This document shows positions 4,247-38,572 of a DNA stretch of 64,000 nucleotides, in pieces (position 1 is the stretch's first letter; each line of letters starts with the position of its first letter). The stretch lies in IMG/VR virus record IMGVR_UViG_3300045051_000531; one strand, 5' to 3'. This DNA comes from a virus. Both the position numbers and the translations under genes were made by a program. The notes beneath the pieces were generated by a model that ran no database searches, had not been told where the DNA came from, and saw nothing but the letters and a program-made list of their open reading frames with translations.

Positions 4247-4666
4247 ATGCCTGACTCCCTGATCCGCAAGCTGGCTGGTGTTCGCAAGCTGGCGTTCATG
4301 ACGATCCCAGGCGCCGTCATCGGGGGTGTTGGTGGCGCCATCGATGACGAGGACCGCTCCGAGGGTACCGGGGACAAGTTCATGCGTGGTGCCGCCACTG
4401 GTGGCATCACCGGGCTCGGCGCCGACATCGGGGCCATCGGGGGTGCCCTGGCTGGGATGCATCTCTCCGACGACAAAAACAAGTTGAGGGGTGCCATCAT
4501 CGGTGGCGGTGCCGGGGCTGTGAGCCTGGGCATCCTGGCGTATCTGCTGGCACGTAAGAAGGACAAGTACAAGCAGACCACGTACCTCGACAAGCCAGCG
4601 CGGCCCCTGGCTGCTGGTAGCGCTGCCGATCTCGGGCTCCTCGGGGCCGGACTCGCGGCTTCCTGA
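4247..4666 (+). CDS. glycine-zipper membrane protein, putative internal head protein
   Basis: MPDSLIRKLAGVRKLA leader, three GxxxG helices; start chosen from GAGG RBS (track starts at 4235). Confidence 0.65.
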   Translation: MPDSLIRKLAGVRKLAFMTIPGAVIGGVGGAIDDEDRSEGTGDKFMRGAATGGITGLGADIGAIGGALAGMHLSDDKNKLRGAIIGGGAGAVSLGILAYLLARKKDKYKQTTYLDKPARPLAAGSAADLGLLGAGLAAS

Positions 4667-4673
4667 GATCATT

Positions 4674-5396
4674 ATGCCGCTGAATCAGAAGGCCAAAAAG
4701 GTTCTGGATTCCATGAAGAAGCAGTACGGCGCCGAAGAAGGCGAGCGGGTCTTCTATGCCACGGCAAATAAGCAGGGGCGCAAGGCGGAGACCTGGACCA
4801 AGGAAGCCGCGGCGTGCTGCGGTTCCAAGTTGAAGAAGCGGCTCAAGAAGCGGGCCCAGAGTCCGCAGGAGCACTTCGCTGGGACCGTCGAGGAGCTCGA
4901 GCACACCGACAAGCCGGTGGTCGCGAAGCGGATCGCTGAGGACCACCTCGACGAGGACAGCAACTATTACAAGAAGCTCGACGAAGCCGGACTCTTCGGG
5001 GACAAGGCTTCGGAGACCAAGCAGGCCGCGTACTACGAGGTCGGGGACCCCGAGGATGACGACAAGCCGTCATTGATGTGGAACGTCCTCGGCGGTGCCG
5101 GTCTTGGTGCCGCTGCCGGTGTCGCCGGTGGCGGCGGTTACGGGGCCCTGAGTGGTTACTCCGATTACAAGACGAACACGGCCCCCGTGCTGAGCGCAGC
5201 CAGGAACCTGGCGACAGAAAACAACCTTCCGCCTCCGTACTTCGAGATGATCGATAGGGCGAACCAGGAAGCCGGTGGATCTCCGAGTGGAGCCGCCTGG
5301 AAGGGGTTCTCCGAGAACAGCTGGAAGCCAGGCCTCTGGGGTGCCGGGATCGGTGCCGGGATCGGTGCCCTGCGTTACCTCCTGAGCCGCGGTTAA
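4674..5396 (+). CDS. modular virion protein: DUF5661-like domain plus glycine-zipper helices
   Basis: GTVEELEHTDKPVVAKRIAEDHLDEDSNYYKKL resembles DUF5661; modules separated by KEAA, KRA, KQAA. Confidence 0.6.
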   Translation: MPLNQKAKKVLDSMKKQYGAEEGERVFYATANKQGRKAETWTKEAAACCGSKLKKRLKKRAQSPQEHFAGTVEELEHTDKPVVAKRIAEDHLDEDSNYYKKLDEAGLFGDKASETKQAAYYEVGDPEDDDKPSLMWNVLGGAGLGAAAGVAGGGGYGALSGYSDYKTNTAPVLSAARNLATENNLPPPYFEMIDRANQEAGGSPSGAAWKGFSENSWKPGLWGAGIGAGIGALRYLLSRG

Positions 5397-5407
5397 CAGG
5401 ATTAGAG

Positions 5408-6985
5408 ATGCCACGTCCGCAGTTCATGCAGACCTACCTGAACGCGTGGCGTGCCAACCCGGTTCGCACGCTGCGCGATACCGGGCTGGTGTCTGGTCTC
5501 GGCATGTTCTCGGCGAATCAGGCCTGGAATCTGCTGAGCCCGGAGCGTCGTCGAGCCAACGCTGATATCGTCAGCAAGAACATGTCCAAGGGCGTCATCG
5601 ACGCCTTGGTCCCTCCGGACATGACGCAGAAGCTTCGGGACCAGGTTTCCGGGCTCCCGCAGGGGATCAGGCAAAGCATGGAGGCCGGTATTCAGGGCGG
5701 CTTCCGGGAAGGTACCAGCGACCTGTTTAAGAGCGTTAAGAACAACACCCCGGCATGGTTGGCGGCTGGTTCCGCGGTTCTCGCGGTTCCCACACTGGCG
5801 TACCTGTTGTCGCAGTGGAGTTCAGAGCGGGAGTCCAAACTCGACGCTGACAAGGCGAAGGCCGATGTAGCCAAGCTCAAGCTGCGCCGTAGTCGGGCGC
5901 TGTCGTTGAAGCGGCGGAAGCGCGACATCGAACGTCGCGCACAGGCTCTCATGGCTGAGCGGCTCGGTACGGTCGGGCTTCCTGGCGAAGCTGGACCCGC
6001 CGCGATCGGGTTGCAGCCCAAGCTGGCTGGTTGGCGTAAGCTGGCAGCACAGCAGAAGCAGGCGATTCGATTCTGGCCGCGCCGGCTTGGCGGCGCCCCG
6101 AGCACACCCCCGAAGCCGGTGGTCCCCGCGGAGCCGCGGGCCTTCTCGAACTCGCTGCTCTGGGGTCTCGGTCTCGGCGGTGCCGGGCTTGGTGCCTACA
6201 ACGTCGGTACCGGCATCCACGGTGGCGTCGGTGTCGCCAAGAAGCTGATCTCGGATCCCGAGGCCGCCTCGGACATCGTGAATCAGTACGCCTCGCGGAC
6301 CGCGGATCTGGTGCGCGAGAACCTCCCGTTGTCTGACATCGGGCGCGTGGCTGGTGAGGCTGCATCGACAACGGCCATCGGGCTGCTGAAGTCACCTTGG
6401 ACCTATGCTGGTATCGGAGCCACAGTTGGCGCTCCGTATCTCCTGGCGTACCTGCTTGGTGGTCGGAAGCGCCGGAAGCCGGCGAAGACGGCTGCGTTAC
6501 TTGATTACGCGCCGGCAGCGGCTGCGCTAGCTCCACTGGGGTTGTTGGCGAATCGGCGGATCCGGCACTACGCCAGGAATCACGCCTGGCCAGCACTTGG
6601 AACTGGTATGGCGTACACCACGGCCGGACTCGGGCTGGCCTCTACGGTGGACCCACAGCTGCCAGCTCGGGTCTATTCGAGTGCGGCGGCCAAGGCGTTG
6701 CCGGCTATGTTCAGCTTGAATGGCGCCATGCGGGAGCGGCTCAGCGAGCCGCTGGCGAGCACGATGCAGAGCACGATTGGCGGGCTGCCATACAAGGTGT
6801 TCCAGACCGCCAAGGATAGCTCGAAGCGCCTGTTCGATACCGTCAAGGACTCCTTCGAGAAGCGCCCCGTGTACTCTGGAACGGTGGTCGGGCTCGGAGC
6901 TACAGCACTGGGGACCCTTGGTTACTTGTTGTGGAAACAGACACGTCGACAGGCTGAGGACATCGCGGAGGACAAACCAACGTGA
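5408..6985 (+). CDS. multi-TM putative internal head protein
   Basis: several Gly/Ala helices ending LAYLL/LGYLL; KLAG, RKLAA, KTAA motifs. Confidence 0.65.
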   Translation: MPRPQFMQTYLNAWRANPVRTLRDTGLVSGLGMFSANQAWNLLSPERRRANADIVSKNMSKGVIDALVPPDMTQKLRDQVSGLPQGIRQSMEAGIQGGFREGTSDLFKSVKNNTPAWLAAGSAVLAVPTLAYLLSQWSSERESKLDADKAKADVAKLKLRRSRALSLKRRKRDIERRAQALMAERLGTVGLPGEAGPAAIGLQPKLAGWRKLAAQQKQAIRFWPRRLGGAPSTPPKPVVPAEPRAFSNSLLWGLGLGGAGLGAYNVGTGIHGGVGVAKKLISDPEAASDIVNQYASRTADLVRENLPLSDIGRVAGEAASTTAIGLLKSPWTYAGIGATVGAPYLLAYLLGGRKRRKPAKTAALLDYAPAAAALAPLGLLANRRIRHYARNHAWPALGTGMAYTTAGLGLASTVDPQLPARVYSSAAAKALPAMFSLNGAMRERLSEPLASTMQSTIGGLPYKVFQTAKDSSKRLFDTVKDSFEKRPVYSGTVVGLGATALGTLGYLLWKQTRRQAEDIAEDKPT

Positions 6986-8520: not shown

Positions 8521-9811
8521 AGCTCGCATCGCGTTGTGCCGTAAGCTGGCCGCTGTCACCGGGTCAGATGCCCTGTATCGCAAGCTCGCAGCTGCGCGAG
8601 CCGCTGGCTTGTTCCCCAATCAGAAGCAGGCCGCGGAACCGCTGGGGGTCCGGATGTACCAGGCCGGGGACGCCGACCGCGCTGCTCGAGAGGCCGACAA
8701 GAAGGCGTTGCTCGAGGCTCAGAAGATGCGCGGTCAGCGTGACCGCGAGATCAACGCGGCGAAACAGGAAGAAGAGGAAGCCGCGTTCCGCTCGAAGATC
8801 ATGGAACAGTTGGAGCAGAAGAACCCCGAGTTCGCCGCGGCTCGCAAAAACTTGAAGGCGTGGCAGGAGGCCGTAACTGCCTATGAGCACGTCCAAAAGA
8901 CTCGAAGCGGCAGACCGGCGATCACCAAAGGTCAGTACGACGATTACGTCAAGAACATCAACAGTACGCAGAGCATGGTGAACCGGGTTTTCAAACAGGC
9001 CGTGGATGAGGCCAGGGCCGCCGAGGCTGCGCAGCCTTCGCAGGCCGCGCAGGCCACACAGCCCAGCGCACCCCCAACAGCCACTGAACCGGCACAGTCG
9101 GAGACCGCACCGCAACCAGCTCCGGTGGCCCAGACCACGGAGCCCAGCCCGGTCCAGTCCGCACAGCCGGAACCGCCGCCGCAGGCTCCTGTGGTCAAGG
9201 CCCCGGAGCCCGTACAGCCGACGGCTCCAGTTGCCGTAGCTCCTGAACCGGAGCCTCCAGCGGAAGAGGAACCCCAGCAGTTCTCGCCCATGGGTGGCGA
9301 CGATCCCGCTGCGATCACATCGAATGTTCCCGCGAAGCCGCCGACGCCGATCTCGACGCCGTCGCAGTCCATGGCGAAGGCGCCGACTCCGAAGCCACCG
9401 AAGATCGAACCCAGCAAGCCGGCTCCGGTTATCGGTGGGAAGTTCGCTGCGCTGAAGCGCAAGCTGGCCGCCGTGATGCCGTTCACAGCGCTTCGTCGTG
9501 CCCAGCGGATCGGCGGTGGTGAGAAGTTCGACTTCGATGCGCTGCGGAAGGCCTACAACACGGGGCCCTATCAGTGGCTAGCCAAGTCGACCGAACAGCC
9601 TGGGAAGCAGAGCGTCGTGTTCCAAGGCGTCGACACCGGGCTCCCGTTCTCGAAGGCTGGGCTCATCGCGGCTGTGAAGGCTGCGTTGGCTGCGAAGGCT
9701 TCTAAGTCTGGTTCGAAGTCCTGGATGGGCAGAGAGGCTCGGGCTGTGCGTCGCGACGCGAAGACCCACGGCCGCCCGCCCGGTCCGAGCGGCGGCGTTC
9801 TGGGGGACTGA
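8507..9811 (+). CDS. Pro/Ala/Gln-rich putative internal head protein
   Basis: LCRKLAA, YRKLAAA, KQAA leader; low-complexity centre. Confidence 0.6.
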   Translation: MPRSKARIALCRKLAAVTGSDALYRKLAAARAAGLFPNQKQAAEPLGVRMYQAGDADRAAREADKKALLEAQKMRGQRDREINAAKQEEEEAAFRSKIMEQLEQKNPEFAAARKNLKAWQEAVTAYEHVQKTRSGRPAITKGQYDDYVKNINSTQSMVNRVFKQAVDEARAAEAAQPSQAAQATQPSAPPTATEPAQSETAPQPAPVAQTTEPSPVQSAQPEPPPQAPVVKAPEPVQPTAPVAVAPEPEPPAEEEPQQFSPMGGDDPAAITSNVPAKPPTPISTPSQSMAKAPTPKPPKIEPSKPAPVIGGKFAALKRKLAAVMPFTALRRAQRIGGGEKFDFDALRKAYNTGPYQWLAKSTEQPGKQSVVFQGVDTGLPFSKAGLIAAVKAALAAKASKSGSKSWMGREARAVRRDAKTHGRPPGPSGGVLGD

Positions 9812-10620
9812 TGCCGAACCTGGCCCTTGAAGGCGTCCGGGCGGTGACCCCGTTGACACAGGGGGCACGTGATCTGAGCTGGCTGCAACCCAGGCACGTC
9901 GATCACGCCGCTCCGCTGTCGGAGCAGCTCTACGATCAGCTCACCGCGGAAGAGCAGATCGCCAACTTGGACGAGGACCGCCGGAACCCGCTGTGGAAGC
10001 GCACCCTGATGCACGCCGGTATCGGTGCCGGTCTCGGTGGTCTCCTGGCTGGCGGCAAGACCTTGGTGGGAACCCACGGGGACTGGTCCTCGGTTCCCGT
10101 TGGTGCCGGTATCGGTGCCGCTTCAGGCGCCGTGCTGGGTGCCGCGTTCACGGGAGCCAAGGAGCTCCTCGCCGGACTCCTGAGGCGTAACGCGAGGCGC
10201 ACGATCCGGGAGTCCTCGCCAACCGCGAAGCTCGTGATGCGGTCGCCACGGTTCCGGTCGCACGTCAGCGACTACGCGTTGTCCGGCTGGCATCCCTGGT
10301 ACGGCGCCGAGCTCGGCCTGTACGCCGGAGCCCTGGGAACCGCAGCCCATGACTGGGTCTCGGGGACCCCGGTGTCCTGGAAGCGCCCCCTGATCGGTGG
10401 TGGCATCGGGGCCGCCGCTGGCGGCCTGCTCGGCTACATCCTGAGCGAACGGAGGCGTAAGAAGCTCCTGCATCGGATCCGGGACAACTTCGGTCGCCAG
10501 GACCGCGCCAGGACGCGCGCCGAGGTCGAGGCCGCCCGCCAGGCTGGCGGAGAGCTTGCCAACGCGGATACCAGGTTGGAAGCTGCTATGCAGCCCGCGT
10601 TCCCGCAGGTCCAGGGGTGA
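9811..10620 (+). CDS. glycine-zipper membrane protein
   Basis: AGIGAGLGGLLAGG, GAGIGAASGAVLGA, GGGIGAAAGGLLGYIL followed by basic RRRKK. Confidence 0.65.
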   Translation: MPNLALEGVRAVTPLTQGARDLSWLQPRHVDHAAPLSEQLYDQLTAEEQIANLDEDRRNPLWKRTLMHAGIGAGLGGLLAGGKTLVGTHGDWSSVPVGAGIGAASGAVLGAAFTGAKELLAGLLRRNARRTIRESSPTAKLVMRSPRFRSHVSDYALSGWHPWYGAELGLYAGALGTAAHDWVSGTPVSWKRPLIGGGIGAAAGGLLGYILSERRRKKLLHRIRDNFGRQDRARTRAEVEAARQAGGELANADTRLEAAMQPAFPQVQG

Positions 10621-10621
10621 C

Positions 10622-11437: not shown

Positions 11438-11441
11438 CCTG

Positions 11442-11470
11442 TTGCGAAAAGCTATGGCTACCACTACGAT
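11442..11470 (+). promoter_or_regulatory. sigma70-like promoter TTGCGA-N17-TACGAT
   Basis: spacing counted; ACCACTACG shared with promoter at 43640. Confidence 0.55.
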
Positions 11471-11491
11471 CCTGGCTCACAGGAGTTCCCC

Positions 11492-12442: not shown

Positions 12443-12445
12443 GCT
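12417..12445 (+). promoter_or_regulatory. sigma70-like promoter TTGTCC-N17-TAAGCT upstream of portal
   Basis: spacing counted; -10 overlaps the upstream stop codon. Confidence 0.4.
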
Positions 12446-12454
12446 GAGGCCCTC

Positions 12455-14326
12455 ATGAGCGGTCTGGATTCACTGATCCCGGCAATGAGCCAGCAGATGC
12501 AGGGCTCAACGACGGCGCCCAACAACAAGCCGTTCATGACGCCGTGGTTGGACTACTCCACCGTCACGGTTCCCGACAACCACGAACTCGTGATGTGGTG
12601 GGCCCAGTACCTCTGGCTCACCGATGGCAACTTCCGTACCGCGATGGAGCGCGTCGCTGCCCACTTCATGACGGTGTTGGAGTTCCCGGATCTGGAGCCC
12701 GATGAGGAATCCAGCTGGAAGGACTTCTTCAACAACGAGATCAACTATCGCCGCGAGCTGATGTCGGTGGCGTACGATTTCCTGGCGTACGGGAACTGCT
12801 TTGTGTCGCCGTACCTGCCGTTCAAGCGGTTCATGCGGTGCCAGAAGTGCTTCCTGGAACAGCCCATCGATCGCGTCGACTACAACCTGGAGTTCTCGGC
12901 TGTGAAGCCGTACGTGAAGTGGCATCGCAAGCACAGCTGCCCGCGCTGTGACGACACCGGGGATTACGAGGTCCTCGATCGTCGGGATCGCACGCTGTCC
13001 AAGATCAAGCTGAACCGCTATGACCCCGCCGAGATCGAGCTCGCCCAGAACCGGTTCAGCCTGCGCAAGGACGTCTACTGGAAGATCCCCGAGGAGACCC
13101 GGCGTGACATCCTGGAGAAAGCCAGGATCCACATCGATGATACCCCGTTGGAGGTTCTCGAAGCCGTTGCCGTGAATGGTCGGCTCTGCTTCGAGGAGGA
13201 CATGATCCTCCACATCGATGAGCCCATCATCTCTGGCGTCAGGTCGCGTGGCTGGGGTCTGCCGCGTTCGATCTCGAACTTCAGGACTGCCTGGCTCCAG
13301 CAGCTCATCAACAAGACCGACCAGGCCGTCGCCATCGACTACACCCTGGGCATGCGCGTCCTGTCGCCGGCTCCGACCCCAGGCGGTCAGGATCCCATGG
13401 TGACCACGGGCATGGAACAGTTCGTGACCCGCATCAAGAGCATGGTGCAGGAACACCGCAACAATCCAGCTAGCTATCACACGGCGCCATATCCGATTCA
13501 GTACCAGTTCCTCGGCGGCGAAGGTGGCACTCTGATGCCGCCCGAGAAGCTGAAGTTCCGTCAGCAGGAGTACCTGAACCAGCTGGGTGTCCCGTTGGAA
13601 TACCACCAGATGAATCTGAGCACGCAGGCCGCCCCGATGGCACTGCGGCTCTTCGAGTCGTACTGGCAGGTCGTCCCGACGGCGTACAACCGTGTCCTGG
13701 ACTGGCTCGTCGATATCCTGAGCAAGGTCTACGGCATGGAGCCGACCAAGGTCAGGATGCAGAAGACCACCATCGCGGACGACATGGAGCGCAAGGCAGT
13801 CCTGCTCCAGCTCATGTCGGCGAACCAGCTCTCCCCACAGACCGCGCTGCAGCCGTTCGGGATCGATGCCCACGACGAGGTCAAGAAGGTCATCCGGCAC
13901 CAGGAGTTCGTGTCGCGTCAGCAGGACGCCCAGGCCGAGAAGGACGCCCAGCGCGAAGAGATGGGTGCCCTGCGCAGCATGACGGCACAGCCCAGCCCGG
14001 CGACCCTGCAGGCCCAGCAGGCCCAGGCTGCCGCTGGGGCGGCTGGTCCAGCGGGCGCCCCCATGGGTGGCATGCCCACAGGCGGCATGCCTGGGGTCCA
14101 GAGCCAGACGCCGTCATCACTTGGCGAGATGTCCGAGCAGGCCCAGGGGATCGCGCAGCAGCTCGTCACCATGGACGACTACAGCCGAAAGGGCGAGCTC
14201 AAGGCGCTGCGCGAGGGCAACAAGGACCTCCACGCCCTCGTCATGCAGAACCTCGACGACCTCCGCAGCCAGGCCAAGAGCCAGGGTGGCCAGATGCTGT
14301 TGAGTGGCGGCATGCCCGCGGCTTAG
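12455..14326 (+). CDS. portal protein (probable)
   Basis: 623 aa, DFLAYGNCFVSP and RGWGLP motifs typical of portals, inserted CxxC..CxxC, position in head module. Confidence 0.65.
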   Translation: MSGLDSLIPAMSQQMQGSTTAPNNKPFMTPWLDYSTVTVPDNHELVMWWAQYLWLTDGNFRTAMERVAAHFMTVLEFPDLEPDEESSWKDFFNNEINYRRELMSVAYDFLAYGNCFVSPYLPFKRFMRCQKCFLEQPIDRVDYNLEFSAVKPYVKWHRKHSCPRCDDTGDYEVLDRRDRTLSKIKLNRYDPAEIELAQNRFSLRKDVYWKIPEETRRDILEKARIHIDDTPLEVLEAVAVNGRLCFEEDMILHIDEPIISGVRSRGWGLPRSISNFRTAWLQQLINKTDQAVAIDYTLGMRVLSPAPTPGGQDPMVTTGMEQFVTRIKSMVQEHRNNPASYHTAPYPIQYQFLGGEGGTLMPPEKLKFRQQEYLNQLGVPLEYHQMNLSTQAAPMALRLFESYWQVVPTAYNRVLDWLVDILSKVYGMEPTKVRMQKTTIADDMERKAVLLQLMSANQLSPQTALQPFGIDAHDEVKKVIRHQEFVSRQQDAQAEKDAQREEMGALRSMTAQPSPATLQAQQAQAAAGAAGPAGAPMGGMPTGGMPGVQSQTPSSLGEMSEQAQGIAQQLVTMDDYSRKGELKALREGNKDLHALVMQNLDDLRSQAKSQGGQMLLSGGMPAA

Positions 14327-14395
14327 TGAAGGTCACCCTTTCCATAGCGTTGGAAGCTGCATAAGGTTGTGGCACCGCACTAAAGGATCCCGCCG

Positions 14396-14989
14396 ATGCC
14401 TACGTCCCCGTTGTGCCGCAAGCTGGCCAGTGTTCTGCAGACCAAGACCGCCGCCAAGTTCCGGTGGAGCGCGGATCCCGCACAGCTGACGGTGCCTGCG
14501 CACCCGCTGAAGCCGGGATCGTACATGCCGGAACCGGAAGGTTCGACCAAGCCGGTCCTGGGTTCCATGAAGATGCCGGACCTCGGACACGGTGGCCCGG
14601 TGCGCCCGTACAGGCCAAGCCTTGGCGACCGCGGTCGTGATGCCGCCAGTCTCGCAATCCTGCTTGGGCTCCCCGTGGCTGGAGCGGCTGGAATCGCTGG
14701 TGCCGGGTACGCAGCTGGTCGAGCTGGCTCAGAAGGTACCCCGGTTGAACCGCCCGTCACGCCGGCAGCGGATCCGCCGGCGAAGCCGAAGCCGCCGGTG
14801 AAGCCGCCTGTCAAGACTCCAGTCGTCCCGGGTGCCGCACTTGAAGAGCCCGGCATGCTGGATCAGGCCTGGAGCTACGCCAAGGAGAACCCGTGGCAGG
14901 CCGCTGGCATCGGCGTCGCTGGTGCCGCTGGTGTCGCCGGAGCCGTCATGCTGCTCAAGAAGCTTCTGAGCAAGAACCGCGACGAGTAA
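14396..14989 (+). CDS. membrane-anchored putative internal head protein
   Basis: LCRKLASVLQTKTAA leader; C-terminal KENPWQAAGIGVAG anchor. Confidence 0.6.
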   Translation: MPTSPLCRKLASVLQTKTAAKFRWSADPAQLTVPAHPLKPGSYMPEPEGSTKPVLGSMKMPDLGHGGPVRPYRPSLGDRGRDAASLAILLGLPVAGAAGIAGAGYAAGRAGSEGTPVEPPVTPAADPPAKPKPPVKPPVKTPVVPGAALEEPGMLDQAWSYAKENPWQAAGIGVAGAAGVAGAVMLLKKLLSKNRDE

Positions 14990-15005
14990 ACGTCGAGAGG
15001 GCTCC

Positions 15006-17912: not shown

Positions 17913-17922
17913 GACCTCAGAC

Positions 17923-19197
17923 ATGTCAACGCTGTTGCAAAATCAGGTCAAGCTGGCCCTCGCTCGAGTCGTCGCAGATCGAGTTGCCAAGAAGGTGGCG
18001 GCAGAGGGTGAAGGCTTCTTCGCACCGTTCCAGAAGGCGCTCGATCTGGTCCAGCCCCCGAAGCCCGCTGTTCCGGCTAAGAGCCCCGTGACTCCGGTTC
18101 CGGTGCCGAAGCCGGCAGTTCCAGCGGCGGCTGCCCCGCCAGCGGCTCCTGCGGTTCCCCTGGCTCCGGTCAGCGACCCAGCCCCGGTTCCTCCGGCTCC
18201 AGCTAAGCCGGTCACGGCACCTGGACCAGCTGCCACGACCCCCAGCGACGCGATTGCCGCACAGACCGCAGCGGCGCAGGCAGCGTCGGCTCAGGCTCCG
18301 ATGCGCGGCGGGAAGCCGGCGCCGGCGGAAGCCGCGGCACCGGCCACACCGCCGGTCCCAGCTCCAGCTTCTACCCAGCCGCCGGCGTTGCCTGATGAAG
18401 GGAAAGCTCCGAACACGGTTGCGGCTGCAGTCGAGGCCGCCAATGACCCCAAGCAGTTCGAAGAGGCGCTCAAGCAGCACAAAGCGAAGTTTGATGCTGA
18501 TCGCGGGGCGATCACCCAGGAGACCGCTGCAATCGCGGATGCCGTGGTGAAGAATCCAGCGGGGTCCGGGTTCGGCGACTGGGTGACCAGTAACTGGCAG
18601 AACTTCCTGATCCCAGCCGGCATCCTGGCGTTCGCGTTCGGTGGAACTGTTGGCGGTGAGAAGGGCGACATCATCGGCAAGGTTCTCGGAGCCCTGGCGA
18701 TCGGTGCTGGTGGCTACAACCTGTACAAGCGGTACGGGAACATCACCGAGGACCCCGAGCAGGCCGAACCGGGTTCGGCACGGCGCGCCGAGCTTGAGGA
18801 CATCCAAGCCGGGATCCGGACCGCGCTGTTCCAGCAGAAGGACGACGGCACCAAGGCCCCGTTCTACAATCCAGCCGCGGCCTACGACGAGCTGGTCGCT
18901 GGTGCAGGCGGCAATCCCGAGGTTCTGAAGCGGCTCGAGGCCAACAAGGCCTCGATCATCCAGGGCATCCAGGATGTCAGGCTCGCCGCTGGCCTCGGGT
19001 TCACAGACAAGATCATCGCGAAGCTCAAGCAGGGCGAGCAGGCCGTATTAGGGAGCCTCGACGCAGCCGAGGCTGCTCAGCGTCCGAAGGCCCCTGCCGC
19101 GCCGAAGCCGGTGGCCTCAGCACCGGCTGCGACGGCTGGTACGGGTGCAACGCAGACCCCGCGGGCCGGTGGTCCGGCTACGCGGATTCCTGGCTGA
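17923..19197 (+). CDS. Pro/Ala-rich protein with TM hairpin, putative internal head protein
   Basis: MSTLLQNQVKLAL..KKVAAE leader; FLIPAGILAFAFGG / VLGALAIGAGGY; start at ATG 17923. Confidence 0.6.
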   Translation: MSTLLQNQVKLALARVVADRVAKKVAAEGEGFFAPFQKALDLVQPPKPAVPAKSPVTPVPVPKPAVPAAAAPPAAPAVPLAPVSDPAPVPPAPAKPVTAPGPAATTPSDAIAAQTAAAQAASAQAPMRGGKPAPAEAAAPATPPVPAPASTQPPALPDEGKAPNTVAAAVEAANDPKQFEEALKQHKAKFDADRGAITQETAAIADAVVKNPAGSGFGDWVTSNWQNFLIPAGILAFAFGGTVGGEKGDIIGKVLGALAIGAGGYNLYKRYGNITEDPEQAEPGSARRAELEDIQAGIRTALFQQKDDGTKAPFYNPAAAYDELVAGAGGNPEVLKRLEANKASIIQGIQDVRLAAGLGFTDKIIAKLKQGEQAVLGSLDAAEAAQRPKAPAAPKPVASAPAATAGTGATQTPRAGGPATRIPG

Positions 19198-25595: not shown

Positions 25596-26683
25596 TGCTC
25601 GGACATCTTTACATGACCAAGGTGGCCGTCGATTGGACGGACCCAGCTGAGGTCCAGCAGTTCCGGGCCGGGGCCGAGAAGGCGTATTCGGACGCCGTAA
25701 AGTCTAAAGATTTCGCCGGGATCAACGAAGCCCTGAACCGGATCCGGACGTACGAACACAAGACGAAGCAGAAGATGGTTCCGAAGGACGGCTACGACGG
25801 GTTACTGCGCGTCATGCGGATGCTGCACGTCGACGCCGTACGTACGCGCGACGCAACGAAGCTCAGCGCGTTGCAGGATCAGATCGAGTTCCTGGAGTCC
25901 CACACCAACAAGAAGTGGGAGTCCCCCAACGTCAATGCACGCGGCAAGGGTCCATCCGGCGGCACGCTTCCGGATCCCAAGGCGCCGGCTCCGACACCAG
26001 CGCCGAAGCCAGCCGCTCCGGCACCGCCAGCAACGGGTAGCAGCGCCGCCCCGAAAACACCCATGGTTGATTCGGGAAAGTTCAAGGAGCTCAAAGAGCG
26101 GCTCAAGGCCGAGGCCAAGGCTAAGCTGGGCCCAGGCCCAGTCGCCCCAGCGAGTCCGGCTGCGCCGCCCCCGCCTCCTGGTGGCGGAACCGCGGCTAAG
26201 GTCCCGCCAGCACCGGCTCGTGGTGGGGCCGGGGCTCCTCCAGCGCCTCCTGGTGGCGGAACTCCGGCGCCCCGTAGTCGGGCTGCTGCACCGCCGCCGC
26301 CGCCGAAGCCGCCAGTCGCTGCCCCGCTTGGCGGCGGTCCAAAGCCTCCCAGCGGCGGCACAGCTCCGCGTAGTCGACGTGGGTTCGGAGCGCTGATGCG
26401 CGGCGCGCTGCCGTACGCCGGAGCCTTCGCGGCTGGTGGGGCTGCTGGTTACGGGGCCAAGAGTTACCTGGGCCCCACGTCTAAGAGCGACTCTACTGAG
26501 ACCACAGCAGAGAAGCCCGGTATGCTGGACCAGGTCACGAATTACGTCAAAGAGAACCCCTGGACGTCGGCTGGTATCGGGGTCGGAGCCGCAGGAACCA
26601 CAGCCCTGCTGGCTTACCTGCTGAGCCAGGGCAAAAAGCCGGATGAGCGGCCTGACATGGCTGAGGACGTCGTCCTCGCGTAG
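25595..26683 (+). CDS. Pro-rich membrane-anchored putative internal head protein
   Basis: TKVA leader; C-terminal GMLDQVTNYVKENPWTSAGIG anchor homologous to that of 14396-14989. Confidence 0.6.
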   Translation: MLGHLYMTKVAVDWTDPAEVQQFRAGAEKAYSDAVKSKDFAGINEALNRIRTYEHKTKQKMVPKDGYDGLLRVMRMLHVDAVRTRDATKLSALQDQIEFLESHTNKKWESPNVNARGKGPSGGTLPDPKAPAPTPAPKPAAPAPPATGSSAAPKTPMVDSGKFKELKERLKAEAKAKLGPGPVAPASPAAPPPPPGGGTAAKVPPAPARGGAGAPPAPPGGGTPAPRSRAAAPPPPPKPPVAAPLGGGPKPPSGGTAPRSRRGFGALMRGALPYAGAFAAGGAAGYGAKSYLGPTSKSDSTETTAEKPGMLDQVTNYVKENPWTSAGIGVGAAGTTALLAYLLSQGKKPDERPDMAEDVVLA

Positions 26684-29326: not shown

Positions 29327-29551
29327 ATGCAGGTCATCCTGAACCATCCGAACGGTAAGCAGTACCGGCTCCCGGCCACACAGGTCGTCGTCTACAATGA
29401 CGACGGCCACCCAGTCGCGGTGACCTACGAGCACGGCGGTCTCCTGATCCACTCAGACGCCAGCCACAACGACTTCGACCGTACCCTGTTCTCGCTCAAG
29501 GTAGCCTCGATCGGCCCGATGCCGAAGGCTGAGGAGGCCAGCGGTGGCTGA
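29327..29551 (+). CDS. small protein coupled to beta'(C) gene
   Basis: 74 aa, overlaps start of 29544 by 8 nt. Confidence 0.55.
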   Translation: MQVILNHPNGKQYRLPATQVVVYNDDGHPVAVTYEHGGLLIHSDASHNDFDRTLFSLKVASIGPMPKAEEASGG

Positions 29552-31430
29552 CGTCACCACAGTCGGAACCCTGTTGATCAACGACGCCCTCCCTGAGGAG
29601 CTCCGGAAGGATCAGCACAAGCTCGACAAGAAGGGCGTCCACAAGCTCTTCATGGAGCTCGCTGAGAAATACCCGGACCGCTACAAGGAGGTCCTGAAGT
29701 CGTTGTCTGATGTCGGCAGGACCGCGGTGTGGACCGAAGGGCTCTCTGTGAGCCTGGCTGGGCTGCGGAAGTCGAAGGCCAAGGGGGCCATCCTGGGACC
29801 CGTGATGCAGCGTGTCCGAGCCATCATCGATGACGACACCCTGGATCCCAAGGAGCGCAAAGCCGCCATCATCAACGAGCTCATCCCGATCTCGGGTCCG
29901 CTCCAGGATGCCGTGTTGGAAGAGGCCCGCTCGGAGAACTCGCCGTTCGCCGTTCAGATCGATTCTGGTGCTCGTGGCAACAAGAGTGCCTTTGCGTCGC
30001 TTCGTGGCGCCGACCTGCTCACCACAGATCAGCGTGGTGACCTGATCCCGGTTCCGTTGGAGCACAGCTACGCCGAAGGTTTCACACCTGCGGAGTACTT
30101 CGCGGCGAGCTATGGTCAGCGGAAAGGCCAGCTGAGCGTCAAGCTGGCCACAGCTGACGCCGGGTTCCTGAACAAGCAGCTCGTCAATGCGGCGCACCGT
30201 CAGGTCATCACACGTGAGGTCCCCGAGCCTCGCCGGCTCCTGACCGGGCTTCCTGTCGACATCAACGACAAGGACAACATCGGAGCTGTGCTGGCGACAC
30301 AGATCGGTGATTACCCAGCGGGTACGGTCATCACCGATCGGATCCTTGAAGATCTCAAGGACAAGGATCACGACGAGATCCTGATCCACAGCCCGCTGAC
30401 GGAAATCAGCGAGGACGGCGGCATCAGCGCCTGGGCGGCTGGTCGGAGAACCCGCCAGGGCCTCCACGTCATCGGCGACAACATCGGGATCCCGGCTGCG
30501 CAGGCCATCGGTGAGCGGCTCAGCCAGGGTTCCCTGAACGCGAAGCACAGCGCCGGTGTCGGTGACCGGATCAAGAAGTCCGGTATGGAGTACATCAACC
30601 GGCTCATCCAGGCCCCCGAACACTTCCCCGAGGCTGGTCCCTTGGCGAACGCCGATGGCATCGTCAGCGACATCCGGGTCGCCCCGCAGGGTGGTCACTA
30701 CATCAAGATCGGCGAGGAAGAGCACTACGCCGGTCCCGACCTCGGTGTCACCGTCAAGGTCGGCGACAACGTCGAGCAGGGCGACGACCTCACCGATGGG
30801 GTCCCTCACCCAACCCAGCTCATCCGGCTGCGTGGGATCGGCGAGGCCCGCCGGGTCTATACGTCAGCGCTGCGGGACGCCCTGAACGATTCCGGGGCTC
30901 CGGCGCACCGCCGGAACGTGGAATCCGTGGTGGCTGGTCTGATGAACTGGGCCGAGATCCAGGATCCAGATGGTGTCGGTGACGCGATTTACGGCGACGT
31001 GGTCCCCTATGGGCGCCTCGCGGCGACCTACGAGCCCCGGCCTGATGCCAAGGAAGCCGACCCTGAGAAGCTCGTCGGGAACTACCTCGAAGAGCCCGCC
31101 CTGCACTACACCCCTGGTACCCGGATCACCAAGAAGGTCGCCAAGCGCCTCAAGAAGTGGGGCATCAACGGGGTCCGGGCGCACGTCGATCCCCCGGCCT
31201 TCGAACCGTACATGGTCCGTGGTCTCCACAGCGTTTACCACGACCCTGACTGGAAAGTCCGGCAAGCCGGCTTCTACACGGCCAGGGCCTTCGAGAAGTC
31301 CGTGCACCGCGGACTGGAGTCCGACACACAGTCCACCAGCTTCGTTCCGGCCCTGACGACCCCGAAAGTGCTTGGGCGTTCCCTGGGGACCCTGGGCAAG
31401 TACGGTGGCACCCCAGGCCAGAGCCGGTAA
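29544..31430 (+). CDS. rpoC: RNA polymerase beta' C-terminal subunit (bridge helix, trigger loop)
   Basis: DSGARGN; bridge helix YAEGFTPAEYFAASYGQRKG..ATADAGFLNKQLVNAA; trigger loop IPAAQAIGERLSQGSLNAKHSAG. Confidence 0.92.
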   Translation: MADVTTVGTLLINDALPEELRKDQHKLDKKGVHKLFMELAEKYPDRYKEVLKSLSDVGRTAVWTEGLSVSLAGLRKSKAKGAILGPVMQRVRAIIDDDTLDPKERKAAIINELIPISGPLQDAVLEEARSENSPFAVQIDSGARGNKSAFASLRGADLLTTDQRGDLIPVPLEHSYAEGFTPAEYFAASYGQRKGQLSVKLATADAGFLNKQLVNAAHRQVITREVPEPRRLLTGLPVDINDKDNIGAVLATQIGDYPAGTVITDRILEDLKDKDHDEILIHSPLTEISEDGGISAWAAGRRTRQGLHVIGDNIGIPAAQAIGERLSQGSLNAKHSAGVGDRIKKSGMEYINRLIQAPEHFPEAGPLANADGIVSDIRVAPQGGHYIKIGEEEHYAGPDLGVTVKVGDNVEQGDDLTDGVPHPTQLIRLRGIGEARRVYTSALRDALNDSGAPAHRRNVESVVAGLMNWAEIQDPDGVGDAIYGDVVPYGRLAATYEPRPDAKEADPEKLVGNYLEEPALHYTPGTRITKKVAKRLKKWGINGVRAHVDPPAFEPYMVRGLHSVYHDPDWKVRQAGFYTARAFEKSVHRGLESDTQSTSFVPALTTPKVLGRSLGTLGKYGGTPGQSR

Positions 31431-31457: not shown

Positions 31458-33755
31458 ATGCCTGCACCCAATGAGACCGCACTGGAGAAGACGTTCTCGG
31501 ACCTGGCTTACAGCCATCTCCGCGACAAGAGCCAGGCGCTGCTGGACTACCTCGTCGGCTTCCAGCTCCTCAAGCAGGAGAACGATGGCCAGCGTGCCGT
31601 CGGCATCTTCGGCTTCGAGATCGACGAGGACTACTACTACGCCCCGATCTTCTTCCTGAACGGCGAGATTCGCGGCCTGGACTGCCTGTACTCGGTGAAG
31701 TCAGACATCTTCATGCCGCTGACCGATGACTGGGTCAACACGGTCATCAACCGTCGCCAGCTCTCCCTGGGCGAGAAGGACACCAGGTCCCGCGCCGAGC
31801 GCGGCACCCGTGTCCCGAACTACAGCCGGCTCAAGATCATCCCGGGCGGTGGCGGTGGCACCTCGCTGAAGCTGGGATCCGCTCAGCTCCAGAAGCTGAG
31901 CTCCGCCATGATGGGCGAGAACGCCGATCTGGCCGCGGTCCGCAAGATCGATCTGACCCACGAGATCGCTGCTGTCGGCGCCGGCCCGTTCTTCAAGGCT
32001 GCCATGGACCGGAACCCCCGGTTCCGCGCCGCCTTCGAAGACTTCGGCTACAACTACCTGGATCTCGCTGGGGCCCCAGTTCAGCAGGAGAAGGTCGCCG
32101 CTGAGGACGCCGTTGTCCTGATCAACTCGGTCACCGACGAAGGCGTCGACGAGCTCACCGACGAGCAGCGCACCACGGTTCTCGAAGGCGGCACTGCCGT
32201 CATCGACAATCGTCCCGAGGTCGCCAAGGCGATCCTGTACCGAAAGGAAGTCGAGCGCGAGCTCGAGAACCCGACTACGGGCGCCCTCTACGATGTCCTG
32301 TGGTCAGACGGTGCCGTGGCCCCAGCCCTGGTCTGCCCGATCGCCAATGGCGAAAACGAGGTCTTCGTCTTCCGTCCCAACGATGGCGACAAGTACTGCA
32401 GCATCGATCGCCGCAAGGTCTTCGTGACCCGGATGTACAGCGCCAACGAGCTCAACGACTGGCTCAAGAAGAACACCAAGGAAGCCTCGGCCATCAAGCC
32501 GCAGGAAGTCGTCGTCTTCATCGGTTGCGAGGGCGACGCTACCGCAGCGTTCTGCATCTCCGATGTTCGCACCGGGATCGATGGCATCACGGTGGCCACC
32601 GTGAATGATCGGCACCACATGGACGCCGGGAACAACTGCAGCAGCGCTCCGTGCATCAGCAGTGGCTACGCTCGCGGCAACAACGGCGACCCGGAGCCGA
32701 ATCAGTACAACAACCTGCCGATCGATGGGATGTGTGATCGGGGAACCCGTCAGCGCGATCCCACGGTCTTCACCAAGGAAGTCATCATCACCGAGGCCGG
32801 TGGTCGCTCGCCTCGGTTCTCCAAGACGCAGGTCATCGTCAACGACAAGCACTTCTACGCTCTGAAGGTGAACACCTTCAAGCTGGTCTCGACCAGCGAG
32901 CTCTACGAGGGCGAAGTCGAGAAGTACGGTGAGCCCAGGAAGGACGCCCAGCTCAAAGAGTCCGACTTCGGCTGCTACTCCACGGTCTACGAGGCCCTCG
33001 ACAAGGTCGCGGCTGAGTTGAAGACTTGGAAGACGGGTCGCGATCTCACCGTGAAGACCGCGGGTCTCCTGGAGACCGTGGCTTCGGAGCGCGACGCCCT
33101 GGCTGTTCTGATGCAGAAGCTCGGGATGTCGGAGACCGATGCGCGCGTCGTCATCGCTGAGGCTGGTCCAACGGTTCAGTACTACAAGCTGAGCCCGACC
33201 ACCAAGGCCGCGGCTGCCATGCTGGATCTCCCTGAGATCAGGGACACCGATCTCGGTGGTTTCATGAACAGCTACCACCAGTCCCAGGTGCCCTACGCGA
33301 CCACGAACAAGCGGGCCCCCGAGGACAACCGCGAGTTCTACCGGTACTACAGCCCGTTCGCGGGCGGCGCCCCGGACAGCGAGGGCGGCAATGATGGCGG
33401 CGAGGACACCTTCGGGATCGTCGACGAAGCCGCCAAGACGGGTGAGAAGGAAGTCTTCGATGCCGCCGCGTTGGGTTCCCTGATCAAGGCCCACAACCCG
33501 ACGGATCTCGTGGATCGCTTCCTGCCCACGATCACCTCAGGCATGGATCGCATCGGCCGCATGCTGTTCCTGATCTACTGGCACTACGAGGACTTCGAGG
33601 AGCGCTACGGCGAGGACGAGCTCAGCGAGTTCATGGACAACCTGCGCACCGTCTTCGAGCAGCTCGGCGACATCGTGATCTTCGCCAAGAAGCGCACCCT
33701 GGCTGGGGACCCCGAACACTACGGTCTCGGGGCCGCCCCGAACATGGAGGGCTGA
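31458..33755 (+). CDS. prohead core-type protein (765 aa)
   Basis: strongly GC3-biased ORF between RNAP and head genes; KVAA, KTAG, KAAA motifs. Confidence 0.55.
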   Translation: MPAPNETALEKTFSDLAYSHLRDKSQALLDYLVGFQLLKQENDGQRAVGIFGFEIDEDYYYAPIFFLNGEIRGLDCLYSVKSDIFMPLTDDWVNTVINRRQLSLGEKDTRSRAERGTRVPNYSRLKIIPGGGGGTSLKLGSAQLQKLSSAMMGENADLAAVRKIDLTHEIAAVGAGPFFKAAMDRNPRFRAAFEDFGYNYLDLAGAPVQQEKVAAEDAVVLINSVTDEGVDELTDEQRTTVLEGGTAVIDNRPEVAKAILYRKEVERELENPTTGALYDVLWSDGAVAPALVCPIANGENEVFVFRPNDGDKYCSIDRRKVFVTRMYSANELNDWLKKNTKEASAIKPQEVVVFIGCEGDATAAFCISDVRTGIDGITVATVNDRHHMDAGNNCSSAPCISSGYARGNNGDPEPNQYNNLPIDGMCDRGTRQRDPTVFTKEVIITEAGGRSPRFSKTQVIVNDKHFYALKVNTFKLVSTSELYEGEVEKYGEPRKDAQLKESDFGCYSTVYEALDKVAAELKTWKTGRDLTVKTAGLLETVASERDALAVLMQKLGMSETDARVVIAEAGPTVQYYKLSPTTKAAAAMLDLPEIRDTDLGGFMNSYHQSQVPYATTNKRAPEDNREFYRYYSPFAGGAPDSEGGNDGGEDTFGIVDEAAKTGEKEVFDAAALGSLIKAHNPTDLVDRFLPTITSGMDRIGRMLFLIYWHYEDFEERYGEDELSEFMDNLRTVFEQLGDIVIFAKKRTLAGDPEHYGLGAAPNMEG

Positions 33756-36019: not shown

Positions 36020-37394
36020 ATCTCTGATGAGTGAGGCCCGTCATGAGTGCCTCATCAAAGCCGCTGAGGAGACCATCGGGCTCATGAACATCGGTGTCGA
36101 TGGCAACGCTGCTCTCGCCAAGGTGGCCGAGGACTCCGATCTCAACGACCACGAGGTCGAGATCGTGGCTCACGCCATCAACAACTCCAAGCAGCTCGCT
36201 CACCTGCAGTCCTCGAAGCCCGAGGACCGCGAGAACGCGTTCCCGCTGGTGGATCCTAAGGCCGTGAAGGTCCATCAGGAGGAACCCACGACGAACGCCG
36301 ACGTCGAGACCGGGAACCGCTATGGCTCCCAGGATACCCCGTCGCAGAGCGCCGAGGATCGCTTCGAGGGGAACGATGCCCTCGACATCCAGAAGGAGGT
36401 CTCCAAGGAGGCCTCGGTTCAGGACTTCCGCACCGCTGGGACCAAGGTCGACCACGCCGCCGCGCTCCGCGAAGGCTGGGGACTCCAGCAGGCCAAAGTG
36501 GCCCAGGCCCAGGTCAAGCCGAACCAGGACGTCTGGGCTCCGTTCCGGAAGCTGAGCGGCGACGCCCACGTCCTCCAGGACGCCAGCCGAGCCATCCTGG
36601 AACTCCGGGAGGCCGCCGAGGGTGTCCTGGCCAAGCTGGCCTACGAGCTCCGCCGGACCGATGCTCCGAAGTGGGCCGGGATCGAGAAAGCCGCAGCCGC
36701 CAGTGGTGTCAGTTCAGACACCATCGACCTGGTCTACAACACGGCCGGGCTGGAGAAGTTCGGCGAGGCCCGGGCTGACCTCACCAAGACGGCGTCCGAT
36801 CGGATCTTCGTCTCGGCTCGGGAGGCTGCGATCGTCGAACTTTGTGTCCGCGCGGACACCATCATCAAGGAAGCCGGCGAGCTCGTCGCGACACGGGATG
36901 CCGCGCAGAACAGCTCCAGCGCCGCTGAGCTGGATCTCCTCGGGGTCAAGACCGCTGGTGAAGCCCAGTCGTACGCCCCAGGAGCCTTCGTGGAAGGCGG
37001 CTCGATCAAGTTCGATCCTGGTGCCATCAGCAAGGAGTTCGAAACGGCCCCGCAGGACATCCTGTCCCCGGACAACATGATGATTGCGGCTGGTGGCAAG
37101 CCGACCGGAGCCGAGGCTCCTGAGCTGAGCTACGATAATGCCGTTGGTCAAGGCTTCAGGCAGGACGTCGCCAACATCGATGCCAGGGGTCAGATCGAGG
37201 GGCTCATGAAGGATGACTACATCGGTGGTCACGAGCTCCCGGAAGTCATCGAGGCCTACAACGCCGCGATGTCGGTGAACCCGAACTTCGGTCGCGCTGA
37301 ACTCGTCAGCTATATCCGGCAGCACCTCGCCACGAAGGGCGGCGTCCCGCTGGATCTCCAGATCAGGGCGCGCAACAAGGGTCAGTCGGCATGA
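36012..37394 (+). CDS. putative prohead core protein
   Basis: KAAE, KVAE, KEAS, KTAS, KTAG motifs; acidic/Ala-rich. Confidence 0.6.
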   Translation: MPESLMSEARHECLIKAAEETIGLMNIGVDGNAALAKVAEDSDLNDHEVEIVAHAINNSKQLAHLQSSKPEDRENAFPLVDPKAVKVHQEEPTTNADVETGNRYGSQDTPSQSAEDRFEGNDALDIQKEVSKEASVQDFRTAGTKVDHAAALREGWGLQQAKVAQAQVKPNQDVWAPFRKLSGDAHVLQDASRAILELREAAEGVLAKLAYELRRTDAPKWAGIEKAAAASGVSSDTIDLVYNTAGLEKFGEARADLTKTASDRIFVSAREAAIVELCVRADTIIKEAGELVATRDAAQNSSSAAELDLLGVKTAGEAQSYAPGAFVEGGSIKFDPGAISKEFETAPQDILSPDNMMIAAGGKPTGAEAPELSYDNAVGQGFRQDVANIDARGQIEGLMKDDYIGGHELPEVIEAYNAAMSVNPNFGRAELVSYIRQHLATKGGVPLDLQIRARNKGQSA

Positions 37395-38572
37395 GTTTCG
37401 CCAAGCAGGCCTCGGAAATCGTCACGGATCGTGTCGCGTGTCTCCTGTTGGCCAAGGAGGCCGAGGCTGTCGTCATCGATCCGGATCGTGAGCTCCAGGA
37501 CGAAGCCACTGAGGACGAGGTCCGGAAGTCGAAGCGGAACCGACTGCTCTGGGCCCTCGGCGGACTCGCGGCGCTTGGTGGCGGCGGGTACCTGGCCCAT
37601 CGTACCGGGATGCTGGACGCGATCGGTGATAAGTTCAGGTCCAAAAATCCTGACACCCAACCAGGCGTGCTCCAGCGCGGTGCTGAGGCCGTATCGCAGG
37701 TCCCAGCTACCGCGTCGCTCGCACTGGGTGCTCTGAACGCATCGCGTGGTTCGCGTCGGATCTCCGAGTTCCTGCCCACAGGCCCGCGGGCACTGCGTCG
37801 GCATGCCCCAGGCAACCCGGCGGACTCCCTGCACGGTACCCTCGGAATGGCCGATCAGCTGCGCGAGGATGTACAGCGGACTCCAACGACCGGTGCTGGT
37901 GATGGGATCTGGTCGACCGTGAGCGGAAACCGTGAGCGGGCCGAATTGCGTGACCGTATGCATAGGATTTTCGAGGGCCTCCCGAAGGGCACGAACCAGG
38001 CGCAGCTCGCCGATCGATTCACGCAGATGTTCGATCGTCAGGGAGCCGCTCCAACTGGGCTTCAGGAAGTCCTGTGGAATCGTGCACGGGCCACGCCCGG
38101 CCCCGGTTCGATGACGCTAGACGATATCGACAAACTCGAGCGCACCGTCGCTGATACCACGCGAGGCGGCCGGTTCGGACGTCTCTTCGCGAATCGTCAC
38201 GTCGATCAAACCGCGCTCAGGCTTCTCGAAGAAGGCCTGCAGAACGACATCGCTGCAGCGAAAGCTGGCGATGCCACCGCGAAGGCGCGCATCGAACGCG
38301 TCGCACGCGAGGACATGGGCTTCGACCCGAAGATGCGAGCAAAGGGAGACCCAGCTATCAGTGAGGCTGACGCGGCTGAAAAGCTGCGCGGCACGCTGCG
38401 GCAGTTCCGTACGCTGCCGACACGCCCTGGTCGTAGTGTTGCGGGTGTACTGCGCCGCGGGCTTCTCCCGCTCGCGATTACACATGGTGTCGCCCCTGTG
38501 ACCGCTGGTGCGCTGCGCTGGTCCGGGCTCGACGCACAACCAGCTCCGAAACCGGAAGAGCAGAAACCGTGA
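37391..38572 (+). CDS. membrane-anchored putative internal head protein
   Basis: MSFAKQAS..AKEAE leader; LLWALGGLAALGGGGYLA TM. Confidence 0.6.
   Translation: MSFAKQASEIVTDRVACLLLAKEAEAVVIDPDRELQDEATEDEVRKSKRNRLLWALGGLAALGGGGYLAHRTGMLDAIGDKFRSKNPDTQPGVLQRGAEAVSQVPATASLALGALNASRGSRRISEFLPTGPRALRRHAPGNPADSLHGTLGMADQLREDVQRTPTTGAGDGIWSTVSGNRERAELRDRMHRIFEGLPKGTNQAQLADRFTQMFDRQGAAPTGLQEVLWNRARATPGPGSMTLDDIDKLERTVADTTRGGRFGRLFANRHVDQTALRLLEEGLQNDIAAAKAGDATAKARIERVAREDMGFDPKMRAKGDPAISEADAAEKLRGTLRQFRTLPTRPGRSVAGVLRRGLLPLAITHGVAPVTAGALRWSGLDAQPAPKPEEQKP

Follow-up and report, generated by a model that had tools for sequence, protein, structure and literature searches.

In podoviruses, proteins carried in the head are ejected before or with the DNA (gp7, gp16 and gp20 of P22; gp14, gp15 and gp16 of T7), and their hydrophobic helices form a trans-envelope channel. 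In the channel structure of P22, the C-terminal helical hairpin of gp7* is embedded in the outer membrane, and a 36-helix pore is formed with gp20. How DNA and proteins pass the inner membrane in large phages that inject an RNA polymerase (RNAP), and how the early phage infection (EPI) vesicle of phiKZ-like phages is shaped, are open questions, and no phage membrane protein was found in the literature to be assigned to either task. In bacteria, ElaB, YqjD and YgaM are fixed in the inner membrane by a transmembrane helix. In this anchor, a helix-breaking Pro precedes a Trp, glycines are conserved, and the last residues are Arg-Arg or Arg-Lys (bioRxiv 10.1101/2024.08.16.608256); the anchor of YqjD drives formation of SDS-stable dimers. 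The present study concerns a stretch of 64,000 nucleotides (the window) of the IMG/VR virus record IMGVR_UViG_3300045051_000531, which is part of a ~191.5-kb genome of an uncultured soil phage, a complete contig according to the protein database. Six genes of the window share a short anchor-like module, and the locus suggests that proteins able to insert into membranes are carried in the phage head and brought into the host at infection.

The shared anchor-like module

Six copies of the pentapeptide L[AG]Y[LI]L are found among the 55 called proteins of the window, each behind a Gly-rich uncharged stretch and in front of Lys or Arg, in agreement with an initial annotation of this DNA, by which GxxxG helices often end in this way. 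The pentapeptide belongs to a module of ~35 residues, which reads P/S-W, 2-6 residues, G-I/L-G-A/V, 4-8 residues, LL(A/G)Y(L/I)L and a basic Lys/Arg patch. A hidden Markov model (HMM) was built from eight copies, that is, the pentapeptide copies and two variants (LRYLL in 4674 and MLLKKLL in 14396; genes are named here by their start positions), and was searched against the 888 six-frame open reading frames (ORFs) of the window. Matches were confined to six genes (4235, 4674, 5408, 9811, 14396 and 25595), with eight strong copies and two weak ones, both in 9811. When the HMM was rebuilt with one gene left out, the missing gene came right behind the other five and outranked all of the ~880 other six-frame ORFs in every case (E 2e-11 for 25595, 1e-5 for 5408, 5e-5 for 9811, 2e-4 for 14396, 3e-4 for 4235 and 0.16 for 4674, the weakest recovery, with a domain E of 0.003). 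Because of this recovery, the six genes are regarded as a real family, united by a shared cassette and not by overall homology. As judged from the sequence, the phage has spread one short, anchor-like cassette over six otherwise unrelated, lineage-specific proteins.

The copies are C-terminal in 4674, 14396, 25595 and the third copy of 5408 (5408c), and internal in 4235, 5408a, 5408b and 9811. A Lys/Arg patch follows the helix in all copies but that of 4674, where a single Arg is found. The helix is preceded by NPW in 14396 and 25595 and by SPW in 5408b, and W or P is found nearby in the other copies. GxxxGxxx[GAS] zippers number 22 against 7.0±2.7 in shuffles, the excess being significant only in 4235 (5 against 0.34 expected), 4674 and 9811 (6 against 0.18 expected). 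In 4235 (HMM domain E 2e-17), whose longest ORF begins at 4235 rather than at the initially annotated 4247, there is also a weak match to the Pfam Gly-zipper 2TM family (20.2 bits, cutoff 24.2); prediction of a homodimer gave no verdict (score 0.00), the monomer fold itself being uncertain. The three domains of 9811 have E values of 1.6e-16, 4e-4 and 0.04.

The 5408 protein (HMM E 5e-39, three domains) looks like a polyprotein of anchor units, and no homologue besides itself was found among 5.8e9 proteins. Its AlphaFold2 model from a single sequence is all-helical with a pLDDT (predicted local distance difference test score) of 40.7 and is not usable. Likewise, the N-terminal domain of 25595 has no homologue besides itself. 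In 14396 (HMM E 4e-12), a Pro/Lys-rich linker joins the first Gly helix to the C-terminal anchor. Such long Pro/Ala/Lys-rich linkers between N-terminal domains and anchors are seen in 14396 (a K-P/P-V-K run), 25595 (~150 residues) and also in 17923, which is outside the family; they may resemble the periplasm-spanning spacer of TonB. The 4674 protein (HMM E 1e-13) has a DUF5661 domain (Pfam, 28.6 bits, cutoff 27), and its anchor is kept in the relatives P0003, P0006 and P0008. At positions 4674-4810 it has an N-terminal module of ~45 residues (..KKQYG..GERVFYATANKQGRK.ETW.K) common to the metagenomic proteins P0003-P0008, whose C-terminal halves differ; two of the carriers are encoded on contigs of 209 kb and 98 kb, respectively. 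This N-terminal module, for which Pfam and PHROGs gave no matching family, may be a targeting or docking domain.

A family of at least ten ORFs had been proposed in the initial annotation, and a dozen injected membrane proteins were imagined, which is too many for a module found in six. The four other ORFs (17923, 19204, 20286 and 37391) gave no match to the module HMM and have only generic Gly/Ala-rich hydrophobic segments with one zipper motif each, individually non-significant (P ~0.08-0.09). The hydrophobic segments of 17923, 19204 and 20286 rank with the most conserved parts of these proteins when homologues of two metagenomic relatives, L027 and L028, are compared (26-45% identity): 12 of the 27 invariant columns in the alignment of 17923 with both homologues fall in its hairpin, and the Gly positions of 20286 are kept in both. 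An AlphaFold2 model of the 20286 family (three sequences) reached a pLDDT of 36.6 and is not usable.

The C-terminus of 25595 reaches the cutoff of PF19029, the DUF883_C glycine zipper region (27.5 bits, cutoff 27), in agreement with the precomputed annotation of the database. Scores below the threshold were obtained for 14396 (15.8 bits) and for the outside proteins P0022 (21.3) and P0015 (16.2), while the other eight listed proteins had no match at E≤1 and the remaining outside members had none. The N-terminal, ribosome-binding domain of DUF883 proteins had no match at E≤1 in the ten proteins. In alignments, the phage module has the P-W, the conserved Gly and the basic C-terminus that characterize ElaB, YqjD and YgaM. 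The module thus looks like a distant relative or look-alike of the DUF883_C anchor and is membrane-anchor-like; it is called DUF883_C-like here, rather than a member of DUF883, because the N-terminal domain is absent and the module profile misses bacterial DUF883 proteins. The initial view of these helices as membrane anchors is supported indirectly by this signature and by 25595 standing at the PF19029 threshold, although their hydrophobicity is marginal.

Outside the window the module is rare. A search of 1.84 billion representative proteins with the module profile gave 17 matches at E≤1e-3, including the window's own six. The outside proteins share the same LLAYLLS and basic ending, and some have several anchors: three in P0013, two in P0014, and two strong ones with a third, weaker Gly-zipper segment in P0015, which its source lists as an ElaB/YqjD-family protein. 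In P0022, an ortholog of 14396, the N-terminal tag and the anchor are both kept, and the module is also present in P0020, P0021 and P0023. Among the relatives of 4674, the N-terminal ~45 residues are joined to differing C-terminal parts, with the anchor at the end of several of them; hence the cassette is portable and is recombined among proteins of a small group of uncultured phages. No match was found by tblastn of 4674, 14396 and P0013 against 50,697 phage records, and neither P0014 in viral and JGI contigs nor P0025 in genome contigs could be located. The closest relative found is L028 (portal 66% and RNAP 63% identical), in which an anchor protein of 118 aa is encoded immediately downstream of the portal gene, in the position of 14396. 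In three Arash-like IMG/VR contigs, proteins of 84 or 85 aa are encoded on the opposite strand, upstream of the RNAP gene (L009:1480-1731, L023:6570-6821 and L006:2485-2739, all minus strand); they end in a Gly/Val-rich helix followed by ..LQAYGKKR and are weak look-alikes of the module (E 0.0075 for L009 and L023, 0.62 for L006).

Gene context and the K-x-A motif

The window has a G+C content of 64%, and nearly all long ORFs are on the plus strand. Megablast of 13 kb of it against the same 50,697 phage records gave no match. Forty of the 55 called proteins were scanned against PHROGs and Pfam, which yielded an RNAP, a NUDIX domain, a protease, DUF5661, DUF883_C, a GT41/TPR protein and a weak tail-fibre PHROG (ORF 144). 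The block from 4235 to 41730 is tightly packed on one strand (gaps of ≤69 nt throughout 4235-34928), and encodes the portal, both RNAP chains, the protease, scaffold-like proteins and the anchor proteins (Table 1). RNAP chain 1 has its best deposited relatives in Salmonella phage Arash (31% identity over 97% of the length) and Vibrio phages D69, D181 and D148. In mass spectrometry (MS) of Arash virions, gp206 was the most detected protein and gp216 was among the top five (PMC10585845), and for this reason it is reasonable to take the RNAP of the present lineage as virion-borne. Arash gp4 (L002:2528-5821, 1097 aa), the second most detected virion protein, has an uncharged Gly-zipper stretch at residue 196 (TLLGGAGAVAGGLIGSIAM); thus, among the virion proteins that MS detected in the nearest isolate, there is one with a Gly-rich hydrophobic helix, which is distinct from the present module.

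Synteny with Arash places the portal, RNAP, protease and capsid genes, so that the interleaving of the helix-bearing ORFs with portal, RNAP and protease genes, which was noted initially, proves right on tblastn and PHROG evidence. The start of 25595 overlaps the stop codon of RNAP chain 1 by 1 nt. The interval between the portal and RNAP genes has six genes here, in contrast to a single ORF of ~95 codons in Arash and D69. By tblastn of all window proteins against Arash, tail proteins are encoded downstream of the major capsid gene. The further statement that the helices lie away from tail or lysis genes holds for most members, which are in the head block, but 4235, 4674 and 5408 come directly behind small membrane-protein genes at 1887-3234, which are candidate lysis genes. 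A holin or lysis reading of the whole family was rejected, since most members are in the head block.

The tripeptide K[LVI]A is enriched in genes 4235-41730 (42 occurrences against 16.0±3.8 in shuffles) in contrast to the remaining genes (8 against 7.1), and RKLA occurs seven times against 0.6 expected. K[LVI]A stands in the first 26 residues of eight proteins (1.5 expected), including 4235 (twice), 14396, 17923 and 25595, and the scaffold-like proteins at 39864-41730 are among the richest in K-x-A. K-E-A is found at residues 25-29 of the capsid proteins of both this phage and Arash. The N-terminal sites are conserved in P0022, and so are those of 26725 and 27452 in their L028 orthologs. Between the window and L028 orthologs, conservation of K.A is only modestly above background (0.34 against 0.26). 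In one pair of orthologs (36012-37394 and L028:20963-22240, 35% identical), six of the ten K-x-A sites are preserved amid diverging flanks, and nothing else points as clearly to selection on the tripeptide itself. On the pattern of T4 and phiKZ, K-(L/V/I)-A is a candidate cleavage or targeting signal for the prohead protease. K-T-A-A is found a few residues past the basic patch of internal anchors in 5408 (second anchor), P0013 (twice), P0014 and P0015 (twice); if it were cut, multi-anchor proteins would become units each ending in an anchor, and 5408b would become C-terminal.

Some other features of the region were observed. A 512-aa NUDIX-domain protein (6982-8520; Pfam E 5e-10) is encoded within the K-x-A-rich block, has K-L-A-G ~25 residues N-terminal of the Nudix domain, and is possibly enzyme cargo of the head. 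The major capsid gene is directly followed by 43674-45578, which encodes a TPR protein with an OGT-like GT41 glycosyltransferase domain (Pfam Glyco_transf_41, E 2e-43). The product of 62749-63621 is weakly similar to Arash gp10 (tblastn E 2e-10), a protein with the annotation of an RpoS-like sigma factor that was also seen in virion MS. A protein atlas search with the 968-aa neighbour 15006 gave a best score of 0.82 and no lead, and a scan of positions 1-20000 for promoters and terminators found no more sites than in shuffles.

Table 1. Coordinates of the anchor proteins, the four ORFs outside the family and the structural and RNAP genes of the window
Feature	Position	Strand	Remarks
143-aa module protein	4235..4666	+	anchor module 4463-4576; double RKLA tag 4265-4300 N-terminal; several Gly zippers
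240-aa module protein	4674..5396	+	conserved N-terminal module of ~45 aa, DUF5661, Gly zipper, C-terminal anchor 5298-5393
525-aa module protein	5408..6985	+	three anchor modules 5726-5836, 6377-6481, 6848-6958; internal double K-L-A 6017-6052
269-aa module protein	9811..10620	+	strong anchor 10354-10467; weaker Gly-zipper copies 9985-10050, 10084-10200
Portal	12455..14326	+	tblastn Arash gp204, E 5e-49; L028 portal 66% identical
197-aa module protein, post-portal	14396..14989	+	RKLA tag 14417-14452; hydrophobic Gly helix 14642-14698; C-terminal anchor 14870-14986
424-aa protein	17923..19197	+	N-terminal K-L-A tag, Pro/Ala-rich linker, conserved hydrophobic helical hairpin 18607-18735
238-aa protein	19204..19920	+	one Gly/Ala-rich amphipathic stretch 19360-19434; homologues L027 45%, L028 26%
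297-aa protein	20286..21179	+	directly upstream of RNAP gene; Gly-rich hydrophobic stretches 20583-20639, 20826-20894
RNAP chain 1, beta fused to beta'-N	21189..25595	+	1468 aa; PHROG RNAP-beta families; Arash gp206
362-aa module protein	25595..26683	+	N-terminal K-V-A tag, helical domain, Pro-rich linker of ~150 aa, C-terminal anchor 26540-26647
RNAP chain 2, beta'-C	29544..31430	+	Pfam RNA_pol_Rpb1_5, E 1.4e-13; tblastn Arash gp216
Structural protein	31458..33755		tblastn Arash gp218
393-aa protein	37391..38572	+	one Gly-rich stretch 37541-37609; 4-nt overlaps with both neighbours, including the protease gene start
Prohead maturation protease	38569..39855	+	phrog_18299, E 8e-9; Arash gp222, 37% identical
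Two Ala/Lys-rich scaffold-like proteins	39864..41730	+	K-x-A 16 against 7.7 expected, 9 against 4.0
Major capsid protein	42627..43565	+	tblastn Arash gp226, E 3e-24; end of the K-x-A-rich block

Possible roles of the anchor proteins

The account tentatively preferred here is that the anchor proteins are head cargo, which is trimmed at K-x-A, ejected and inserted into the inner membrane, where it aids DNA passage or holds cargo. They would be loaded into the prohead, where the prohead protease would trim cargo at K-x-A and convert proteins of the 5408 type into single anchor-ending units. Together with the DNA and RNAP, the anchor pieces would then be ejected from the head, and their marginally hydrophobic Gly-zipper helices might insert and self-associate in the host inner membrane, to help DNA to cross it or to hold ejected cargo there. 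Packaging, proteolysis, ejection and membrane insertion, and likewise any channel or compartment, are what we infer from the genes and their context. Head cargo is supported indirectly by the tight same-strand arrangement with the portal, RNAP and protease genes, by the shared K-x-A motif, by K-T-A-A behind internal anchors and by the abundance of RNAP in Arash virion preparations. A functional precedent for a membrane-inserting ejection protein may be seen in gp7* of P22. A farther-reaching version, in which a myovirus outside Chimalliviridae packages protease-trimmed, anchor-ending proteins beside its RNAP and these organise a membrane-bound site of entry and early transcription upon ejection, is quite unlikely.

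Several observations weigh against the anchor proteins being head cargo. None of them has a homologue among the proteins seen by virion MS, and, taken over their whole length, the anchor proteins show no raised density of K-x-A. The helices are marginally hydrophobic throughout (Kyte-Doolittle 1.3-2.0), and their summed Hessa-type score is +1.1 to +3.1, whereas the plain transmembrane helix of ORF 1887 scores -2.2. Only one copy reaches the curated threshold of PF19029, and the module profile reached no ordinary bacterial DUF883 protein among the 1.84 billion proteins at E≤1e-3. Moreover, anchors of the DUF883 type insert from the cytoplasm of the producing cell, which would compete with prohead loading, and three of the genes adjoin the candidate lysis genes as described above. 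No copy of the module is present in Arash (~135 of its 181 kb examined), in the D69 locus or in 22 IMG/VR loci of RNAP relatives, and L028 has no homologue of 25595. Because of this absence in L028 and in the other relatives, the anchor proteins are considered to be dispensable, fast-changing accessories rather than core machinery.

It is also possible, with somewhat less probability, that the proteins are never packaged. Made late, they would be tail-anchored from the cytoplasm into the inner membrane of the producing cell, where they may tether head assembly or packaging to the membrane, time lysis or exclude superinfection. All of the studied anchor relatives (ElaB, YqjD and YgaM) insert in this way, and the Pro/Lys-rich linkers of 14396 and 25595 suit a tether; the neighbourhood of 4235, 4674 and 5408 with the small membrane-protein genes and the variation of the set among relatives, which is usual for accessory genes, also fit. 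On the other hand, the N-terminal K[LVI]A tags are common to other head-block proteins, 25595 and 37391 are translationally coupled to the probable virion RNAP gene and the protease gene, respectively, and K-T-A-A behind internal anchors is hard to explain without proteolysis. If true, action in the producing cell would point to membrane-tethered head assembly in this lineage.

The module might instead be an oligomerisation or head-interior packing tag that bundles diverse capsid cargo, comparable to encapsulin cargo-loading peptides or to a building block of an inner body, rather than a membrane anchor. This is unlikely, since P-W, Gly zipper and basic patch are the build of a known membrane anchor and uncharged stretches of 19 residues are otherwise almost limited to the membrane-protein genes at 1887-3234, although a tag would agree with the marginal hydrophobicity, the Gly and Ala content (37-63% of helix residues), the internal position of several copies, the single copy above the DUF883_C threshold and the occurrence of the module in otherwise unrelated head-block proteins.

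Still less likely, though compatible with the data, is the compartment model of the initial annotation, in which ejected anchors would gather host lipid into a closed compartment around the DNA and virion RNAP, by analogy with the EPI vesicle. Arash-like phages with the same RNAP lack the anchor family, the RNAP-adjacent anchor protein is missing from L028, and no inner-body protein of PF12699 is present among the 40 window proteins scanned. Nevertheless, the RNAP is probably virion-borne with 25595 coupled to its gene, and EPI vesicles exist in phiKZ-like phages, in which shaping of the bilayer is an open question. An artefact of composition, in which a genome of 64% G+C produces Gly/Ala-rich proteins with a chance likeness, is hardly credible: it would suit the non-significant zipper motifs of the four loose ORFs, but chance is excluded for the six strict members by their leave-one-out recovery, and the module with its LLAYLLS and basic ending is also found in outside proteins.

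The locus supplies candidates for the passage of the inner membrane and for vesicle shaping: an anchor cassette that is portable, K-x-A as a candidate processing motif, and polyprotein-like multi-anchor proteins. It also indicates that a tail anchor of bacterial type can be a mobile module, shuffled from one phage gene to another. If the reading as a site of entry and early transcription were true, membrane structures built by phages in early infection would be more widespread than is assumed, and their membrane-shaping proteins would be identified for the first time.

Comparison with known systems

No paper was found that links DUF883-like anchors to virion or head proteins of phages. The module resembles the DUF883_C anchor in its helix-breaking Pro and Trp, its Gly-rich helix of transmembrane type and its basic C-terminal patch, but differs in the LL(A/G)YLL end of the helix and a longer basic patch. 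Its carriers are head-block proteins with internal copies or three copies per protein, in which they differ from DUF883 proteins.

The T4 internal proteins have an N-terminal capsid-targeting sequence that is cut by gp21, which is similar to the short protease-motif tags on diverse head-block cargo here. The T4 motif is L/I-x-E, in contrast to the candidate K-(L/V/I)-A, and the T4 cargo is without membrane anchors. In Chimalliviridae (phiKZ and Goslar), the PF12699 proteins form a paralogous or shuffled set encoded in the head block near the virion RNAP; they are processed by protease and co-injected, and early infection involves membrane. The present phage lacks PF12699 in the 40 proteins scanned and has a two-chain RNAP of the Arash type. 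No membrane anchors were found reported in the literature for the injected proteins of Chimalliviridae, and no vesicle is known in the present lineage, unlike the EPI vesicle of Chimalliviridae.

No match to PF25688, the family of P22 gp7 type, was found in the ten proteins at E≤1. Compared with the podovirus ejection proteins, the relatives of the present phage are myoviruses (Arash), the proteins that bear anchors are far more numerous, and packaging is here inferred. The type of anchor and membrane-inserting ejection proteins as such are thus known, whereas the shuffled cassette, the polyprotein-like multi-anchor proteins and their placement beside a probable virion RNAP are new.

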